Shown here: positions 1-6,600 of the stretch, one piece after another
Layout of the letters: each line of letters opens with the position of its first letter
Position numbering within the stretch: position 1 is the first letter of the stretch
Position numbers and translations under genes: made by a program
The notes under the pieces: model-generated
Told to the model about the DNA's origin: nothing
What the model saw: only the letters and a program-made list of their open reading frames with translations
Database searches by the model: none
Source of the DNA: Escherichia coli
Lineage (GTDB): Bacteria > Pseudomonadota > Gammaproteobacteria > Enterobacterales > Enterobacteriaceae
Direction: 5' to 3' (one strand)
Assembly (NCBI RefSeq): GCF_024502345.1
Contig: NZ_JALDNN010000001.1
Length of the DNA: 64,000 nt

Positions 1-281
1 GGCGTGTCTGCGGTTTTTCAACTATTCAGATACATCACTCCCATCACATTCATTCCTCCGCATCATAGGCATATAGGCTATATCACCTTGATATTTTTCT
101 TCTTCAGATAAAAACTGTTATCTATGTATACTTTTAAACCCAATCCGTGTAGAGTCTCTGCATAAGATAGTTTGCAGTTGCCACTTCAGCTTGCGCCATA
201 AACCGCCTGATTTTTGCCGCCACCTGGGTGATGCTGCCAACTTACTGATTTAGTGTATGATGGTGTTTTTGAGGTGCTCCA

Positions 282-557
282 GTGGCTTCTGTTTCTATCA
301 GCTGTCCCTCCTGTTCAGCTACTGACGGGGTGGTGCGTAACGGCAAAAGCACCGCCGGACATCAGCGCTATCTCTGCTCTCACTGCCGTAAAACATGGCA
401 ACTGCAGTTCACTTACACCGCTTCTCAACCCGGTACGCACCAGAAAATCATTGATATGGCCATGAATGGCGTTGGATGCCGGGCAACCGCCCGCATTATG
501 GGCGTTGGCCTCAACACGATTTTCCGCCATTTAAAAAACTCAGGCCGCAGTCGGTAA
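282..557 (+). CDS. insA: IS1 InsA
   Basis: 91-aa [27 protein letters not shown]..., recognised as IS1 InsA. Confidence 0.95.
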
Positions 558-979
558 CCTCGCGCATACAGCCGGGCAGTGACGTCATCGTCTGCGCGGA
601 AATGGACGAACAGTGGGGATACGTCGGGGCTAAATCGCGCCAGCGCTGGCTGTTTTACGCGTATGACAGGCTCCGGAAGACGGTTGTTGCGCACGTATTC
701 GGTGAACGCACTATGGCGACGCTGGGGCGTCTTATGAGCCTGCTGTCACCCTTTGACGTGGTGATATGGATGACGGATGGCTGGCCGCTGTATGAATCCC
801 GCCTGAAGGGAAAGCTGCACGTAATCAGCAAGCGATATACGCAGCGAATTGAGCGGCATAACCTGAATCTGAGGCAGCACCTGGCACGGCTGGGACGGAA
901 GTCGCTGTCGTTCTCAAAATCGGTGGAGCTGCATGACAAAGTCATCGGGCATTATCTGAACATAAAACACTATCAATAA
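476..979 (+). CDS. insB: IS1 InsB (expressed as InsAB' by frameshift)
   Basis: 167-aa ORF overlapping insA in the -1 frame, typical IS1 arrangement. Confidence 0.9.
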
Positions 980-994
980 GTTGGAGTCATTACC

Positions 995-1092
995 TAAGTC
1001 AGGTATAAATATAAGTGACATTGCCCAAGAATTCAAAACCTCGCGGCAAACCATTTTAAGAGCTAAAGCAAAAAATCAGACACCTGATATAT
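995..1092 (+). pseudogene. C-terminal HTH fragment of a recombinase/DNA-binding protein truncated by IS1
   Basis: Open frame running straight out of the IS1 right end: ...[31 protein letters not shown]. Resembles the C-terminal HTH of serine recombinases; no start codon of its own. Confidence 0.3.
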
Positions 1093-1191
1093 AAAAATAA
1101 TCTCGGTGTGAGATTCCTTACGTTTTCCAAGCCCCCCTTCCTAGCCTTAAATGGAAAGATACTTCTAATTATAGAATTTATATATCTTACC

Positions 1192-1359
1192 CTACGGTAG
1201 GGCTGGCCATTCAATATCCGGTGCAGTTGATGTATCAACACGGTTCAGCAACACCCGATACTTTTTCCAGGCTTCCAGCAACAAGGTTTCTTCCTCCGTT
1301 GCGATCTCCAGATCCACAGCATCCTGAAGCGGCGCTATATGCTCACTGGCTACCTGCAT
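1192..1359 (-). CDS. Hypothetical small acidic protein (55 aa), divergent from the CI-like gene
   Basis: [58 protein letters not shown]; below the 60-aa cutoff of the ORF track; sits in the cro position but shows no obvious HTH. Confidence 0.3.
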
Positions 1360-1439
1360 CAGGCTGTTTTTTGTTTCTTCCGCCTACCTGTAATACTGAT
1401 TGCGAGTTGAATGGTTTGATTTGTCATTATCAATTCCTA

Positions 1440-1537
1440 TTGGTATTGCAATGAATGAATAATAGCAATGCGTATTAATCCAAGCAATAGCAAAACGTGT
1501 TTTGACCATCAATACGCAAGCGTATAAATTAAAACTT
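1440..1537. promoter_or_regulatory. Operator/promoter region upstream of the CI-like gene
   Basis: AATAGCAAT at 1461-1469 and AATAGCAA at 1486-1493; palindromes ATTGCAAT (1445-1452) and ATACGC-AA-GCGTAT (1512-1525); TTGACC (1502-1507) followed by an AT-rich -10-like stretch ending ~9 nt before the ATG at 1538, suggesting a leaderless or near-leaderless transcript. Confidence 0.45.
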
Positions 1538-2230
1538 ATGAAAAAAGAAACTCTTGCTGATCGCTTAAACCTAGCGATGGAACAATCTGGAATGTCTCAA
1601 GGCGCTCTTGCAAAGGCGTCTGGCGTAGCTCAACCCACAATCTGGAGACTGACAAGCGGCAACGCTCGCGGCTCAACAAAAATTGTTGAAATAGCTAATG
1701 CATTGGGTGTTCGAACAGAATGGCTCTCATCAGGCATAGGCCCGATGAGAAATGACGGTCAACAATCAGGGAAGCCTGCTGTCAGCCATTCAAAATACTT
1801 CAAGATTGACGTTCTTGATATAGAAGTGAGTGCCGGGCCGGGAGTCATCAACCGTGAGTTTGTAGAAGTTCTACGCTCGGTTGAGTACTCGTTTGACGAT
1901 GCTCGTCACATGTTCGATGGTAGGAAGGCAGAAAATATCCGCATCATTAACGTACGCGGTGACAGCATGTCAGGAACGATCGAACCAGGTGATCTGCTGT
2001 TCGTTGATATCACGGTTAAATCTTTCGACGGTGATGGTATCTATGCGTTTCTGTATGACGACACCGCCCATGTAAAGCGCCTGCAAATGATGAAGGATAA
2101 GCTACTGGTTATCTCTGATAACAAGAGCTACTCACCGTGGGACCCGATCGAGAAAGACGAGATGAACCGGGTATTCATATTCGGTAAGGTTATTGGGAGC
2201 ATGCCGCAGACGTACAGAAAACACGGATAA
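1538..2230 (+). CDS. CI/LexA-type phage repressor (N-terminal XRE HTH, C-terminal S24 autopeptidase)
   Basis: 230 aa from MKKETLADRLNLAMEQSGMSQGALAKASGVAQPTIWRL (HTH) to ...NVRGDSMSGTIEPGDLLFVDI...AHVKRL (S24 Ser in GDSM and Lys in VKRL). The ORF track offers an upstream ATG at 1502, but that lies inside the promoter-like region. Confidence 0.85.
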   Translation: MKKETLADRLNLAMEQSGMSQGALAKASGVAQPTIWRLTSGNARGSTKIVEIANALGVRTEWLSSGIGPMRNDGQQSGKPAVSHSKYFKIDVLDIEVSAGPGVINREFVEVLRSVEYSFDDARHMFDGRKAENIRIINVRGDSMSGTIEPGDLLFVDITVKSFDGDGIYAFLYDDTAHVKRLQMMKDKLLVISDNKSYSPWDPIEKDEMNRVFIFGKVIGSMPQTYRKHG

Positions 2231-2312
2231 TCAGCCGCGTGTTGATGAGGCTTTTGGGTAATACGCTGAAGAAAATACCTTATAAAAAATAACATTACGG
2301 GAAAGGCAAAAA

Positions 2313-2576
2313 ATGAGTAATAAAACACTTGTTAAAAAATCAAATAACTGTGTCGATGCATACGCCGACGCGTTTGGCTACTCTTCGTTTGGTGACGGCT
2401 CTCAGCGCCTAGGTTCAATTTCTTTTTTTCATAATGTAACTGAATGGCCTGTTGATGAAAGTGACGATGTTGAGAACATAAAGTACAACATTGCAACCAT
2501 TAGAATGCCCGAAGAATTGATGCTTAAATTGGCTGACTTCATTCGCGACCAGCATGACAAAGCTAAAACAAACTAA
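2313..2576 (+). CDS. Hypothetical protein (87 aa), prophage cargo gene
   Basis: ORF with GGAAAGG ribosome-binding site 7 nt upstream; AT-rich compared with neighbours; no family recognised. Confidence 0.5.
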   Translation: MSNKTLVKKSNNCVDAYADAFGYSSFGDGSQRLGSISFFHNVTEWPVDESDDVENIKYNIATIRMPEELMLKLADFIRDQHDKAKTN

Positions 2577-2588
2577 TCGTAATTAATT

Positions 2589-3032
2589 ATGAAACACGAT
2601 TATTACGAAGCTCCAAACCTAAATGATAAAATTGCAAAGGCGGCAAAATCATTTTGTTTGCACTCCAGTGCGTCTTCCCAGCTAGCAGGTATATCTGGAA
2701 AAAGATGGGACATGCTACAATCAAGTGGTAGCAGTGGGTCTGGGAGTGATAACATGCCTGAAAAAGTTGCAAAACTGGAGTCCGATGTTGCTCATATCAA
2801 ACGAGACGTTGATGAACTTAAAACAGACGTTAAAGCTATCGACAAAAATATGATAACTATTCTTGCACGTCTGGACTCTATAAAAGAATCCTTAACAAAC
2901 AAGCCATCAAGTGATGCTGTCGATAGAAAGATTTCAGACGCAAAGCTTGCGGTATTGCTTGGTGTTCCAGCAATCATCGCTGCAGGAACAGGACTTTATA
3001 AGCTATCAATGTACTTTTTCTTTAGTGCTTAA
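2589..3032 (+). CDS. XhlA-like coiled-coil protein with C-terminal transmembrane helix
   Basis: C-terminal 92 aa MPEKVAKLESDVAHIKRDVDELKTDVKAIDKNMITILARLDSIKESL...AKLAVLLGVPAIIAAGTGLYKL: heptad-like coiled coil plus one hydrophobic helix, resembling phage hemolysin XhlA. The ATG at 2589 has no ribosome-binding site; the ATG at 2754 has GGGAG 7 nt upstream and may be the true start. Confidence 0.5.
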   Translation: MKHDYYEAPNLNDKIAKAAKSFCLHSSASSQLAGISGKRWDMLQSSGSSGSGSDNMPEKVAKLESDVAHIKRDVDELKTDVKAIDKNMITILARLDSIKESLTNKPSSDAVDRKISDAKLAVLLGVPAIIAAGTGLYKLSMYFFFSA

Positions 3033-3106
3033 GAAAATGCTCGCACCCTTGCATTAGGTAAAGCGATTTTTCATTCCCCATTACCCTCGCTCTTAACCAA
3101 TCATCT

Positions 3107-3136
3107 AAACCCGGCCACCGTGCCGGGTTTTCTTTT
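3107..3136 (+). terminator. Rho-independent terminator after the CI/cargo operon
   Basis: aaaCCCGGC-caccgt-GCCGGGttttctttt: GC stem, 6-nt loop and T-run, just downstream of the 3032 stop. Confidence 0.6.
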
Positions 3137-3261
3137 GCCCTCCCCTCATCACACACCGTTCAAAAAACCACCACGACCTCACTTCAGTTATCGCTATGCG
3201 ATGCAAGTCACAAAATTAATTCTTTTTGCTATCAAACATTTAATATCAAAACACATCAACT

Positions 3262-3308
3262 AATAGCAATAAGTATTGATATCACCAATAGCAATAGCTA
3301 TTATCACC
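3262..3308 (+). promoter_or_regulatory. Second operator set with pL-like promoter
   Basis: AATAGCAAT at 3262-3270; palindrome AATAGC-AATA-GCTATT at 3287-3302; TATCACC direct repeats at 3280-3286 and 3302-3308; TTGATA (3276-3281), 17-nt spacer, TATTAT (3299-3304) on the + strand. Confidence 0.4.
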
Positions 3309-3497
3309 ATATCGCAACAACACAACGATACGGCAACCACCTGATTCACCGTTGCGATGACCGCTTAGATCCGCAGCTTGAATTTCAGCAGGCTTCGGGG
3401 AGTGCGAGGGATGAAACGGACGCGTGAACGTCGGTGTGACCAGCTGAAATCAACTCAACATTTCATACCTTAGTCGCTTCAACGAGGCGGCTTAGTT

Positions 3498-3788
3498 ATG
3501 ACAACCGGCGGCCATCCACCGCCTGAATACGCGCAGAAGTCTTTATATGTTCAGCAGCCCAGCTTACGGGCAGGAGTTTTTATGGTTCATCAACATTACG
3601 GAACGCAGACCGTTAATCGCGGTGCGGTCATGCCAGGAATGCTGGTCAAACGCAAAGATGGTACCTGGACTGCATCAGCTAATTTACGCGGACGACTTTA
3701 TCTGCATCGCGGCATTGAGCGCACTTATACCCGTGACTTGCTCGTGGAAGTTTTTCTCGACGGACGCGGCAACGGTCTGAATCACTAA
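3498..3788 (+). CDS. Hypothetical prophage protein (96 aa)
   Basis: ORF with GAGG about 10 nt upstream; no family recognised; an internal start MVHQHYG at 3582 is also possible. Confidence 0.35.
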   Translation: MTTGGHPPPEYAQKSLYVQQPSLRAGVFMVHQHYGTQTVNRGAVMPGMLVKRKDGTWTASANLRGRLYLHRGIERTYTRDLLVEVFLDGRGNGLNH

Positions 3789-3863
3789 TCCCCTTTCCTG
3801 TTTTCCGAATCAGCCTGGCATTCCGCGGGCGATTTTTTCACAGCCATTTTCAGGAGTTCAGCC

Positions 3864-4148
3864 ATGAACGCTTATTACATTCAGGATCGTCTTGAGGCTC
3901 AGAGCTGGGCGCGTCACTACCAGCAGATCGCCCGTGAAGAGAAAGAGGCAGAACTGGCAGACGACATGGAAAAAGGCCTGCCCCAGCACCTGTTTGAATC
4001 GCTATGCATCGATCATTTGCAACGCCACGGGGCCAGCAAAAAAGCCATTAGGCGCGATCACTTTCATCTACTCCGTTACAAAGCGAGGCTGGGTATTTCC
4101 CGGCCTTTCTGTTATCAGAAATCCACTGAAAGCACAGCGGCTGGCTGA
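3864..4148 (+). CDS. Hypothetical prophage protein (94 aa)
   Basis: [31 protein letters not shown]... with AGGAG 9 nt upstream. Confidence 0.5.
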
Positions 4149-4175
4149 GAAGATAAATAATAAACGGGAGGCGGT

Positions 4176-4367
4176 ATGCACAAAGCATCTCCTGTTGAGT
4201 TAAGAACGAGTATTGAGATGGCACATAGCCTTGCTCAAATTGGAGTCAGGTTTGTGCCAATACCAGTAGAAACAGACGAAGAATTTCATACGTTAGCCAC
4301 ATCCCTTTCACAAAAGCTGGAAATGATGGTGGCGAAAGCAGAAGCAGATGAGAGAGACCAGGTATGA
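4176..4367 (+). CDS. Hypothetical prophage protein (63 aa)
   Basis: ORF MHKASPVELRTSIEMAHSLAQIGVRFVPIPVETDEEF... with GGGAGG 5 nt upstream. Confidence 0.5.
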   Translation: MHKASPVELRTSIEMAHSLAQIGVRFVPIPVETDEEFHTLATSLSQKLEMMVAKAEADERDQV

Positions 4368-4377
4368 CAACCACTGA

Positions 4378-4656
4378 ATGCATTTTTCTGGCAGCGGGCT
4401 TCATATTCTGTGTGCTTATGCTTTCCGTTTCCATGACCTCAGACACACCTGGGCAAGCTGGCTGATTCAGTCAGGCGTCCCATTATCAGTGCTTCAGGAA
4501 ATGGGCGGATGGGAGTCCATAGAAATGGTTCGTAGGTATGCTCACCTTGCGCCTAATCATTTGACAGAGCATGCGAGGAAAATAGACGACATTTTTGGTG
4601 ATAATGTCCCAAATATGTCCCACTCTGGAATTATGGAGGATATAAAGAAGGCGTAA
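4378..4656 (+). pseudogene. Tyrosine integrase, C-terminal fragment only
   Basis: ...[46 protein letters not shown]... carries the integrase catalytic box (HxLRHT, trailing Y) but only ~80 aa remain; ends 16 bp from the 3' end of argU, the expected attachment site. Confidence 0.8.
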
Positions 4657-4671
4657 CTGATTGAATTGTAA

Positions 4672-4748
4672 TGGCGCGCCCTGCAGGATTCGAACCTGCG
4701 GCCCACGACTTAGAAGGTCGTTGCTCTATCCAACTGAGCTAAGGGCGC
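4672..4748 (-). tRNA. argU: tRNA-Arg (anticodon UCU)
   Basis: Reverse complement reads GCGCCCTTAGCTCAGTTGGATAGAGCAACGACCTTCTAAGTCGTGGGCCGCAGGTTCGAATCCTGCAGGGCGCGCCA (77 nt, anticodon TCT, CCA end). Confidence 0.95.
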
Positions 4749-4990
4749 GTTGATACCGCAATGCGGTGTAATCGCGTGAATTATACGGTCAACCCTTGCT
4801 GAGTCAATGGCTTTTGATCTGGTTGCTGAACAAGTGAACGACCGCGTCTGATTTTCTGATTTATTTCGCTATAGCGGCAAACAAACACACACCGCTGCGC
4901 GTCTGAATCAAGAAAACCCGTATTTTCATGTATCAAAGTACAATTTACCGCCCTAACGGAAAATTGTCCGCTCCTATGAGACTGGTAACT

Positions 4991-5623
4991 ATGAAACCAA
5001 CGTCGGTGATCATTATGGATACTCATCCTATCATCAGAATGTCTATTGAAGTTCTGTTGCAAAAAAACAGTGAATTGCAGATTGTCCTGAAAACGGATGA
5101 TTACCGCATAACCATCGATTATCTCCGAACCCGTCCTGTTGATTTAATCATTATGGATATAGACTTGCCCGGAACAGACGGTTTTACCTTCCTGAAAAGG
5201 ATCAAACAAATCCAGAGCACAGTGAAAGTGTTATTTTTATCATCGAAATCAGAATGCTTTTATGCTGGCAGAGCGATACAAGCTGGTGCTAACGGTTTTG
5301 TCAGTAAATGCAATGATCAGAATAATATTTTTCATGCCGTTCAGATGATCCTCTCCGGATACACGTTTTTTCCCAGCGAAACGCTTAACTATATAAAAAG
5401 CAATAAATGTAGTACGAATAGTTCAACGGTCACTGTGCTATCTAATCGTGAAGTGACCATATTACGTTATCTGGTTAGCGGATTATCTAATAAAGAAATT
5501 GCCGATAAGTTATTACTTAGCAATAAAACAGTTAGTGCGCATAAATCTAATATTTATGGCAAGCTAGGTTTGCATTCAATTGTAGAGCTTATCGACTACG
5601 CCAAATTATACGAATTAATATAA
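4991..5623 (+). CDS. fimZ: Fimbrial response regulator FimZ (LuxR-type)
   Basis: 210 aa from MKPTSVIIMDTHPIIRMSIEVLL...; receiver domain plus C-terminal LuxR HTH. The ORF track's upstream start at 4928 is probably an overcall. Confidence 0.9.
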   Translation: MKPTSVIIMDTHPIIRMSIEVLLQKNSELQIVLKTDDYRITIDYLRTRPVDLIIMDIDLPGTDGFTFLKRIKQIQSTVKVLFLSSKSECFYAGRAIQAGANGFVSKCNDQNNIFHAVQMILSGYTFFPSETLNYIKSNKCSTNSSTVTVLSNREVTILRYLVSGLSNKEIADKLLLSNKTVSAHKSNIYGKLGLHSIVELIDYAKLYELI

Positions 5624-5720
5624 TATTAATTATAATTGATCATAAATATCGCATCCGCTTTCGCCGGTGATGCTGCCAACTTACTGATTTAGTGTATGAT
5701 GGTGTTTTTGAGGTGCTCCA

Positions 5721-5996
5721 GTGGCTTCTGTTTCTATCAGCTGTCCCTCCTGTTCAGCTACTGACGGGGTGGTGCGTAACGGCAAAAGCACCGCCGGACA
5801 TCAGCGCTATCTCTGCTCTCACTGCCGTAAAACATGGCAACTGCAGTTCACTTACACCGCTTCTCAACCCGGTACGCACCAGAAAATCATTGATATGGCC
5901 ATGAATGGCGTTGGATGCCGGGCAACCGCCCGCATTATGGGCGTTGGCCTCAACACGATTTTCCGCCATTTAAAAAACTCAGGCCGCAGTCGGTAA
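5721..5996 (+). CDS. insA: IS1 InsA
   Basis: Protein identical to copy 1 InsA. Confidence 0.95.
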
Positions 5997-6418
5997 CCTC
6001 GCGCATACAGCCGGGCAGTGACGTCATCGTCTGCGCGGAAATGGACGAACAGTGGGGATACGTCGGGGCTAAATCGCGCCAGCGCTGGCTGTTTTACGCG
6101 TATGACAGGCTCCGGAAGACGGTTGTTGCGCACGTATTCGGTGAACGCACTATGGCGACGCTGGGGCGTCTTATGAGCCTGCTGTCACCCTTTGACGTGG
6201 TGATATGGATGACGGATGGCTGGCCGCTGTATGAATCCCGCCTGAAGGGAAAGCTGCACGTAATCAGCAAGCGATATACGCAGCGAATTGAGCGGCATAA
6301 CCTGAATCTGAGGCAGCACCTGGCACGGCTGGGACGGAAGTCGCTGTCGTTCTCAAAATCGGTGGAGCTGCATGACAAAGTCATCGGGCATTATCTGAAC
6401 ATAAAACACTATCAATAA
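5915..6418 (+). CDS. insB: IS1 InsB
   Basis: Protein identical to copy 1 InsB. Confidence 0.9.
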
Positions 6419-6600
6419 GTTGGAGTCATTACCCGAAAAATGAAGCTTTCAATCTCAGCGACCTCAGCGACGGTGCGCCTCACCTTCGCAAGAGGTCGCT
6501 TCACGCGATAAATCTGAAACGAAACCTGACAGCGTGCCCCGCTTCTGACAAAATAGGCGCATCCCCTTCGACCTACGTAACAGATGGAATCCTCTCTCTG

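Follow-up and report, generated by a model that had tools for sequence, protein, structure and literature searches.

A lambda-type immunity region with cI and kil in a DLP12-family prophage remnant at argU of Escherichia coli

Why should a prophage that has lost nearly all of its genome still carry a repressor module that looks complete? The question is raised by a 64,000-nucleotide stretch of Escherichia coli DNA (RefSeq assembly GCF_024502345.1, contig NZ_JALDNN010000001.1; here the window), in which a stump of phage-derived DNA of 3,666 bp (positions 995-4660) lies between a copy of the insertion sequence (IS) IS1 and the tRNA gene argU. A first-pass annotation, made from the letters alone, had described this DNA as a lambda-style immunity region built around a CI-type repressor, and had suggested that the cassette was kept, either for immunity against related phages or for two small cargo genes under its control. 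The label is supported, as intact relatives show the same genes in such a context. That selection kept the cassette is not established. The best explanation overall, which we hold with a probability of about three in four, is that the stump is a remnant of a DLP12-family prophage with a real immunity region and CI circuit, and that its intactness reflects recent decay together with selection against deletions that remove cI and leave the PL promoter and the kil gene behind.

The parent of the stump could be found. In a BLAST search of complete E. coli genomes and phage records, the best match was an apparently complete prophage at argU of strain OkiPb01695 (locus L001). The window from 1384 to 4660 matches the immunity and early-left region of L001 with 99.9% identity in three collinear blocks, namely 1384-4050 (L001 9001-11667, 2 differences in 2,667 bp), 4049-4427 (L001 13270-13648), and 4422-5665 (L001 15651-16894, 99.8%), the last of which comprises the 3' end of int, argU and fimZ, and has more differences (3 in 1,244 bp) than the first. 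Between 1384 and 4427, the window is collinear with L001 except for two deletions. In L001 and phage PhiR68_2, the genes are arranged in the order Q ... nin ... P, O, a YdaT-like cII, a YdaS-like cro, cI, two small genes, kil, gam, bet, exo, DUF1317, DUF1382, orf61, a traR-like gene, DUF4222, xis and int, followed by argU. The layout of L001 recurs in PhiR68_2 and in 10 further loci that encode an identical CI. An IntD-type integrase gene ends beside argU, and the backbone is collinear, as in other members of the DLP12 family, a very common group of lambdoid prophages with this integration site. The window from 995 to 4660 is the remainder of a lambdoid prophage of this family of about 44 kb, and its surviving core is the real immunity region of the phage. 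The first-pass annotation had called for a hunt for an intact parent; in both parents found, L001 and PhiR68_2, the genes stand in an immunity-region context.

The operators of this region recur on both sides of cI. They conform to a 16-bp palindrome, AATA(G/C)(C/G)-N4-(C/G)(G/C)TATT (AATASS-N4-SSTATT), of which there are six sites in two clusters. Four sites, spaced 25-29 bp, lie to the left of cI in the OR region (1432-1447, 1461-1476, 1486-1501 and 1511-1526), and two lie at OL (3262-3277 and 3287-3302). The three matches without mismatch in the 64-kb window all fall within the two clusters. When up to three mismatches are tolerated, there are 14 matches against 4.9 expected, a number that was reached in 0 of 100 shuffles. 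By a half-site rule of at least 11 of 12 positions, the two clusters contain six sites, compared to three in the remaining ~60 kb.

Promoter-like sequences overlap the operators in both clusters. The OR region (1432-1530), delimited by pattern search, half-site scan and promoter scan, contains a PRM-like site with the -35 hexamer TTGACC (1502-1507) and the -10 hexamer TAAATT (1525-1530), which agrees with the consensus in 9 of 12 positions. One operator abuts the -35 hexamer, in an OR2-like position, and another covers the spacer and the -10 hexamer, in an OR3-like position. Transcription from this site would give a leaderless or nearly leaderless cI mRNA that starts at or just before the ATG, as in lambda. 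A divergent PR-like site, assigned by eye on the minus strand sequence, has the hexamers TTGCTT and TATTAT with a 17-nt spacer, and overlaps the stretch 1461-1501. On the other side, the pattern and promoter scans locate a PL-like site on the plus strand (3262-3304 together with its operators), with TTGATA at 3276-3281 and TATTAT at 3299-3304 (10 of 12 consensus positions); both OL operators overlap it. The same operator is thus repeated at OR and OL, over PRM-like and PL-like sites, and the two operator/promoter regions predicted by the first-pass annotation are borne out at 1432-1526 (four sites) and 3262-3302 (two sites). Among 13 related loci, which have diverged too little to give a strong footprint, the operator 3287-3302 and the PL -10 hexamer are invariant, and the OR sites are mostly so. 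Two substitutions, 1465G>T relative to the closest sister stump (L017) and 1470G>A, one of the two differences from L001, both fall into the operator 1461-1476 that overlaps the PR -10 hexamer.

The 230-residue open reading frame (ORF) next to OR (1538-2230, plus strand) encodes the CI repressor. As the first-pass annotation had anticipated, Pfam finds both a helix-turn-helix domain (HTH_3, 3.4e-6, and HTH_31, 4.5e-5, residues 6-63) and an autopeptidase domain (Peptidase_S24, 1.9e-18, model positions 5-116 of 116). The N-terminal domain aligns with the DNA binding domain of the 434 repressor (E 1.6e-5 to 1e-4), which is its closest relative among solved structures. The motif GDS143M aligns with GDS60M of UmuD, and VK180RL with VK97KL, so that Ser143 and Lys180 correspond to the catalytic residues Ser60 and Lys97. 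The serine and lysine singled out by the first-pass annotation are therefore both present and correctly aligned. The dipeptide Ala99-Gly100 (in VSAGPG), at the start of the S24 match and in the position where self-cleavage is expected, is a likely candidate for the cleavage site. The cI coding sequence has no nucleotide difference from the RefSeq gene of an intact prophage (WP_001295669.1), and 18,834 blocks of the protein collection list exactly this protein. The cI gene differs from that of PhiR68_2 by 19-20 nucleotides, all of them synonymous. Further loci in the comparison (L003-L012) had been selected for having exactly the same protein, which makes them a biased sample, so that L002 alone is unbiased. 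The substitution pattern clearly points to purifying selection on CI in the phage family; this concerns the live phages, not the stump. Many other relatives (among PhiR34_1, Turner, PhiR26_1, PhiR47_2, PhiR5_1 and O26 strains) share only the S24 two-thirds of cI, from window position 1779 onward, and the downstream DNA, and have a different N-terminal DNA binding domain and different operators. A recombination breakpoint near codon 81 of cI would account for this pattern, swapping the immunity specificity.

One element of a lambda switch is missing from the window, where cI is not transcribed divergently from a functional cro across a shared OR, since only 14 codons of cro are left. In the parental prophages, a gene for a 75-residue Cro is followed by OR and cI. 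In the window, the cro stub (1386-1427, minus strand), the beginning of a gene for a YdaS-family helix-turn-helix protein, is fused out of frame to DNA of the tail fibre assembly gene tfa. Its translation reads MTNQTIQLAISITG followed by 8 junk codons, in contrast to the 75-residue Cro of L001, and the helix-turn-helix is lost. With cro destroyed, the circuit has only a repressor, and is not a bistable switch. The first-pass annotation had assigned the divergent role to a small ORF at 1192-1359. This ORF turns out to be the end of the tail fibre assembly gene, of which a C-terminal fragment (1192-1385, minus strand; PHROG 105/188/136, to 3e-24) is 99.7% identical to tfaQ-type genes, and the real cro is at 1386-1427. 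The same DNA gives the one notable Rfam match apart from the tRNA, to the IS009 family (1226-1426, minus strand, 177.7 bits versus a gathering threshold of 117). The matched DNA is the coding remnant of tfa, and the ~40 nt at the 5' end of the model align poorly across the deletion junction, so the match was not accepted as an RNA gene. This suggests that the IS009 family derives from a pseudogene fragment of a prophage and does not represent a dedicated RNA gene.

Downstream of cI, two small genes, here called A (2313-2576, 87 residues, PHROG 4231) and B (2589-3032, 147 residues, PHROG 3556), follow on the same strand; both PHROG families are without an assigned function. They correspond to the two small AT-rich cargo genes of the first-pass annotation and lie in the lowest-GC stretch (0.38-0.41). 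The hairpin and T-run that it had placed at 3107-3136 could be confirmed as an intrinsic terminator on the plus strand (a 9-bp stem with 6 GC pairs, followed by the T-run), and is the predicted end of the cI-A-B transcription unit. On the plus strand between cI and 3107, there is only one weak terminator-like site, inside gene B.

The key to the survival of the repressor may lie on the other side of the terminator. According to the first-pass annotation, the lytic and structural genes are all gone. This is nearly right, except that an intact gene for a presumably host-toxic protein, kil (3582-3788, plus strand, 68 residues), remains. Its product matches the Kil family (PHROG 294, 1.5e-36) and the NCBIfam model for FtsZ inhibitors (NF008465, 3.7e-16, 58.9 bits, below the cut-off of 92 bits), related loci match Pfam KilR, and the gene has an AGGAG ribosome binding site. 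Kil would thus be a KilR-type inhibitor of FtsZ and cell division. Between PL and kil (3305-3581), a terminator scan found no terminator-like site. As in the RacR type of arrangement, the repressor gene, OL/PL and kil are undamaged and the same as in intact prophages, and the path from PL to kil is free of such sites. Overproduction of the Rac protein KilR leads to cell death (PMC4632033), and RacR is essential in E. coli K-12, because it represses ydaS-ydaT (PMC5700377, PMC5700373). With PL and kil intact and no terminator in between, loss of cI alone would probably be harmful. Derepression of a cell division inhibitor upon removal of cI would be a third reason for the persistence of cI, at least as good as the protection against related phages and the cargo genes.

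The interval between PL and kil is a conserved untranslated leader of ~270 nt (3305-3581). No N-like gene is annotated or was found in it. An antitermination RNA similar to put of HK022 was considered and rejected, as there was no Rfam match and the predicted fold of 3311-3585 was no more stable than that of shuffled sequences (z = -0.16). In a BLAST search for distant relatives, the leader matched only the same phage family and, over short stretches, phi80 and HK225. Its short segments at 3461-3523 also occur in certain Enterobacter and Klebsiella phages, besides phi80 and HK225.

By analogy with lambda and 434, the circuit could work as follows. CI dimers would bind the 16-bp operators at OR and OL. 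At 1461-1501, CI would shut off PR, which has become pointless, and might stimulate PRM from its place next to the -35 hexamer, while CI at 1511-1526, over PRM, would cap the CI level. The near-leaderless transcript from PRM would extend through cI, A and B to the terminator at 3107, so that A and B would be expressed constitutively in the lysogen-like state. CI at 3262-3302 would shut off PL. The cell would be immune to superinfecting phages with the same operators, and kil would be silent. This immunity type is common, with 13% of the complete E. coli genomes carrying it and no fewer than 10 sequenced phage isolates sharing the OL. Since PL appears strong and is not followed by a terminator before kil, loss of CI or its RecA-stimulated self-cleavage would switch on Kil and block cell division.

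All this supposes that the circuit is still alive. It could be argued that CI is no longer made, or that PL-kil is non-functional, and that the region is inert DNA. The PRM-like site is only a modest match to the consensus, and with the YdaT-like cII, any activation of a PRE-type establishment promoter has been lost. However, the autoregulatory loop is identical in every element to that of intact prophages, for which PRM must suffice to maintain lysogeny, PL fits the consensus better than PRM, and the ORFs of cI, A, B and kil are all open. We therefore consider a dead circuit improbable.

The history of the stump can be read from its deletions. On the right, a deletion of 1,602 bp removed the rest of gam, bet and most of exo (junction at ~4050, with 2-bp microhomology), leaving the first ~62 codons of gam (3864-4050, plus strand, PHROG 259). 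A second deletion of 2,002 bp, with its junction at ~4425, took orf61, the traR-like gene, DUF4222, xis and the first 309 codons of int. The truncated integrase gene that the first-pass annotation had noted beside argU is the C-terminal fragment left by this event (4422-4656, plus strand, 78 codons of a 387-residue IntD-type integrase; PHROG 1 and L001 match). With int reduced to a fragment, excision of the stump is not possible. Between the two junctions, the DUF1382 gene, similar to orf63 of lambda and named after the annotation of L001, is intact (4176-4367, plus strand). On the left, homology to intact prophages begins at 1384, and codon 14 of cro is joined to the middle of the tail fibre assembly gene at 1385/1386, again with 2-bp microhomology. 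One prophage of strain C8 has the cI and tfa/pin regions on the same strand at a distance of 35.4 kb, from which it follows that the left junction represents the loss of the entire replication, lysis, head and tail region.

Sister stumps show that this loss took at least two steps, the last one of 2.8 kb. They were retrieved with the junction-specific Gam' fusion peptide from one E. coli draft genome and several human gut metagenome assemblies, and all share the gam' and int' junctions. Three groups can be distinguished. In the first (L014, L015, L019 and L020), cro, the YdaT-like gene and O are still present and joined to a tail fibre gene. In the second, which consists of the window and L017, a further 2.8 kb, from the middle of tfa to codon 14 of cro, are lost. 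The third (L013, L016 and L018) has an additional deletion of 47 bp (~2430-2476) that shifts the reading frame of gene A. The decay across the sister stumps was thus stepwise, and spared the DNA from OR-cI to kil. Apart from the deletions, the sister sequences have 0-1 differences from the window over 3 kb, and the 1465G>T substitution is the only difference from L017. There was too little time for decay, and the dismantling must have been recent. The junction of the window is found in 0 of 5,426 complete E. coli genomes.

So short a history makes it necessary to ask whether anything but chance is required. Recent deletions may simply have happened to miss the cassette, and any piece that survives would then look kept. 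The 0-1 differences per 3 kb among the sisters fit this idea, as do the 2 differences from the intact prophage in 2,667 bp, a frequency below that in the adjacent flank (3 in 1,244 bp). All damage consists of a few large deletions, with microhomologies of only 2 bp at the junctions, and of IS1 insertion, and the presence of two identical IS1 copies indicates very recent IS activity. Two successive deletions on the left and one on the right nevertheless stop just short of the unit from OR to kil, and the one independent stump without cI that was examined (L029) lost PL-kil in the same event, in a single deletion that took cro', OR, cI, the cargo genes, PL, kil, gam, bet and exo. Both samples are small. 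We regard chance and recency alone as a serious possibility, although one below even odds.

The opposite view, taken by the first-pass annotation, is that the cassette is actively kept, because CI protects against homoimmune phages, because the host benefits from the cargo genes, or both. Protection would be used, as the immunity type is common (718 of 5,426 complete genomes carry this OR and the cI N-terminal region, and there are ~10 phage isolates with the same OL). The left-hand deletion ends 44 bp into cro and the right-hand one 262 bp past kil, both close to the unit, and the cargo genes, with ratios of non-synonymous to synonymous polymorphism (pN/pS) of 0.06-0.32 in the wider family, sit in known slots for exclusion genes. 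However, the frameshift in gene A of L013, L016 and L018 makes the cargo dispensable at least there. Moreover, the cognate cro is present in 717 of the 5,426 genomes, almost the same number as for cI; the two genes nearly always go together, so that remnants with only the repressor are not a repeated outcome of evolution. Finally, with 0-1 nucleotide differences between sister stumps, there is no divergence on which selection could be measured. On balance, active retention appears possible, but rather unlikely.

We favour the reading in which recent decay and a ratchet imposed by kil together explain the intactness, and in which homoimmunity and cargo are plausible but unproven extra benefits. 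Most likely, deletions that removed cI and left PL-kil in place were counter-selected, by the logic that holds for RacR and YdaS-YdaT, or for DicA and DicB. Addiction through kil accounts for the pattern no less well than selective retention does. Several points weigh against this reading. The sister stumps are clonal, so that their shared retention of cI and kil amounts to essentially one observation, and L029 is a single independent case. In view of the virtual absence of substitutions since the deletions, intact ORFs are expected under neutrality as well. The all-synonymous differences among the cI genes of L003-L012 are biased by retrieval of these loci with the exact protein. The operators, PR, PRM and the leaderless start are deduced from sequence. 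Finally, the score of Kil is below the NCBIfam cut-off for KilR of Rac, and hence its toxicity is deduced from family membership.

Comparison with known systems places the locus in a well-known class. It is an ordinary cryptic lambdoid remnant with a repressor, a slot for moron genes and a division inhibitor. In intact members of the family, as in lambda and 434, divergent genes for cro and for a CI with helix-turn-helix and S24 domains flank an OR with multiple operators, a second set of operators at OL overlaps PL, kil is in the PL operon, and accessory genes occupy the place of rexAB, between cI and a terminator. Unlike in lambda and 434, operator-like sites number four at OR, with two clear ones at OL, their 16-bp sequence is a different one, and no N gene is found between PL and kil. 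Cro and cII are of the YdaS and YdaT families, Kil is of the KilR type, and the cro gene of the window is destroyed. The stump shares with DLP12 of E. coli K-12 the integration site and the integrase family next to argU and fimZ, and the backbone of the intact relatives includes ybcK, emrE, ybcN, ninE, ybcO, rusA, ylcG and quuD, as in DLP12. DLP12 in K-12 keeps int/xis and the nin-Q-lysis region, and is not known to carry cI, cro or kil. Measured against this K-12 map, the stump has kept the opposite part of the prophage, and its int is only a fragment.

Among cryptic lambdoid prophages, retention of a repressor together with a division inhibitor is familiar from textbooks, with Rac, Qin and e14 as examples. 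In RacR/YdaS-YdaT of Rac, DicA/DicB of Qin, and the e14 repressor with SfiC, as presumably in the stump, the repressor of a non-inducible remnant restrains a gene that is toxic to the host. RacR and DicA are not known to contain an S24 self-cleavage domain, unlike the CI of the stump. The presence of this domain implies that the module should respond to DNA damage, like e14 SfiC. The similarity to Rac extends to the cro and cII genes of this phage family, which belong to the YdaS and YdaT Pfam families, except that in the stump these genes have already been deleted, so that kil is the only candidate left for a toxic target. Defective lambda with cI857 and PL-kil, as used in the laboratory, is of the same kind, with a repressor set against a toxic gene. 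In such pairs, loss of the repressor is harmful (PMC5700377, PMC5700373, PMC3961180).

The cargo genes A and B deserve separate consideration. They occupy a slot between the cI stop codon (~2231) and the terminator (3107), in which at least six unrelated cassettes are found behind an identical CI. Apart from the 87- and 147-residue pair of the window, these encode a DUF6932 protein with a 310-residue protein, HipA_2 with DUF3037, a lone 126-residue protein, 340- and 168-residue proteins, or a protein kinase cassette. In loci with other cassettes, homology resumes at 3103-3110, which makes the terminator the right boundary of the swappable slot. The interval from cI to N is a recognised hotspot of mosaicism (PMC8585504). 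A second variable slot of the same prophage family, between P/ren and ybcN/ninE (L003-L012; L001 2671-5769 and equivalents), contains SIR2_2, NADAR with PRTase-CE, HEPN, DUF4145, Metallophos with HAD, or emrE with ybcK, and looks like another hotspot for defence or cargo genes.

A total of 197 complete E. coli genomes, O26 and O111 enterohaemorrhagic strains (EHEC) among them, have the A/B pair of the window, and a variant with ~81% identity is found behind a heteroimmune cI (L030). Homologues of gene A occur in P22-like prophages of E. coli, Leclercia, Serratia and one further assembly. There, they lie directly downstream of the repressor gene mnt, between mnt and gene 16, an interval that in P22 itself holds orf59a and sieA. 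One more homologue is located in a moron site of the tail region in Raoultella. The pN/pS values (0.06-0.19 for A, 0.32 for B) are indicative of purifying selection on both genes in the wider family. The pair thus occupies the same positions as rexAB of lambda, bstA of BTP1 and sieA in immI of P22, namely downstream of cI in lambda-like phages, and downstream of mnt and before gene 16 in P22-like phages. Nevertheless, neither protein has sequence similarity to RexA, RexB, BstA, SieA or any PADLOC model, and only the position and the co-orientation with cI are shared with RexAB.

Protein A had no match in Pfam, NCBIfam or PADLOC. Its AlphaFold model (pLDDT 77) predicts a small beta-sheet and a C-terminal helix. 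The best match of this model to a solved structure was only at E = 0.07, and a search of the AlphaFold database (AFDB) returned only uncharacterised orthologues and a weak resemblance to DUF3467. For protein B, there was only coiled-coil noise in Pfam and in PADLOC 2.0 (in the latter at E>0.003), and weak matches to XhlA "hemolysin" PHROGs. No family in Pfam, NCBIfam or PADLOC and no solved fold accounts for A or B. B begins with a partner-specific region of ~50 residues, which a Ser/Gly linker connects to a coiled coil that ends in a membrane anchor at the C-terminus. Its conserved core comprises the last 92 residues, from Met56, and three or more sequence types of the coiled coil and anchor exist (PHROGs 3556, 6136 and 12602). 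Some loci are annotated with a 92-residue "type B" protein, which was considered as a mutated gene B and rejected, since the DNA is identical and the start has merely been called at Met56. The N-terminal motif (D/N)YYxxPxLxEK is present in 5 of 6 examined loci that have gene A, and absent from the B homologues of Pantoea and Rahnella, which have unrelated upstream genes. A model of a fusion of A, a linker and residues 1-47 of B, built with six paired sequences, showed no confident contact between A and B (pLDDT 40-59 for the B segment). Literature searches with the accession and PHROG numbers of A and B, and with GevT, a name used in the PhiR phage records, did not find anything.

A reasonable hypothesis, although one clearly below even odds, is that A and B are a previously undescribed repressor-coupled pair for phage exclusion or abortive infection, as position and architecture hint. 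In this case, A may be a small soluble sensor or adaptor, and B a tail-anchored coiled-coil membrane protein, the first ~50 residues of which may pair with A, and the membrane tail of which may be swapped between at least three XhlA-like types. The pair may move as a unit between the rexAB slot of lambda, the sieA slot in immI of P22 and the moron site of the tail region, in Escherichia, Salmonella, Serratia, Leclercia and Raoultella.

The surroundings of the stump carry marks of IS activity. IS1 copy 1 (227-994, plus strand, 768 bp, InsA/InsB ORFs), which ends where the first-pass annotation had placed its end, truncates a Pin-type DNA invertase gene from the late end of the prophage. The C-terminal fragment of this gene (995-1094, plus strand; weak match to PHROG 125) matches, at 99.5-99.7% identity, a gene annotated as "recombinase family protein" that neighbours tfa in prophages of E. 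coli. On the left of IS1, 1.3 kb with ynaM, ydfK and the N-terminus of pin are missing. Prophage DNA continues beyond, as window 1-226 corresponds to 2439-2664 of L028, in the right-end region of the prophage, and the window from 995 onward to L028 from 4001 onward. On the other side follow argU itself (4672-4748, minus strand), identified by ARAGORN and the Rfam tRNA model as a tRNA-Arg(UCU) gene with anticodon tct, which is the attachment site of the prophage, then fimZ (4928-5623) and IS1 copy 2 (5666-6433), a direct repeat of copy 1 with 0 mismatches in 768 bp.

The two IS1 copies bracket the stump, argU and fimZ (4.67 kb) in the manner of a composite transposon. The absence of a matching target duplication links both copies to adjacent deletions, and recombination between them would delete argU along with the stump. 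To the right of copy 2 (window 5666-6500), the sequence resumes between sfmA (annotated as fimA) and folD. The fimbrial genes from sfmF through sfmA are deleted (~5.9 kb, L001 16895-22807). The sfm operon is still present in the sister contigs L013, L016, L017 and L018, and L014 and L015 have IS1 and a shortened, 134-residue fimZ call. The chromosomal flank at 6434-31000 (folD, cysS and allantoin genes) is at most 98.4% identical to any of the 5,426 complete E. coli genomes, and contains IS elements in the form of sequences that are repeated ~29 times per genome. This pattern suggests an IS-expanded lineage similar to Shigella or enteroinvasive E. coli (EIEC).

As a prophage remnant, the stump is routine, and its CI is among the commonest phage repressors in E. 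coli. It can be regarded as the natural equivalent of the defective lambda of the laboratory that carries an immunity region plus PL-kil, and its repressor probably still blocks related phages and silences kil. From the small series of sister stumps, one can read the sequence of steps by which the prophage was dismantled, and the slot between cI and the terminator, with its at least six cassettes behind an identical repressor, illustrates a site of gene swapping. The most useful lead is the A/B pair, which is uncharacterised, is under purifying selection, and recurs in two classical superinfection exclusion slots. If A and B are indeed an exclusion pair, the stump would be a stand-alone defence locus driven by PRM.

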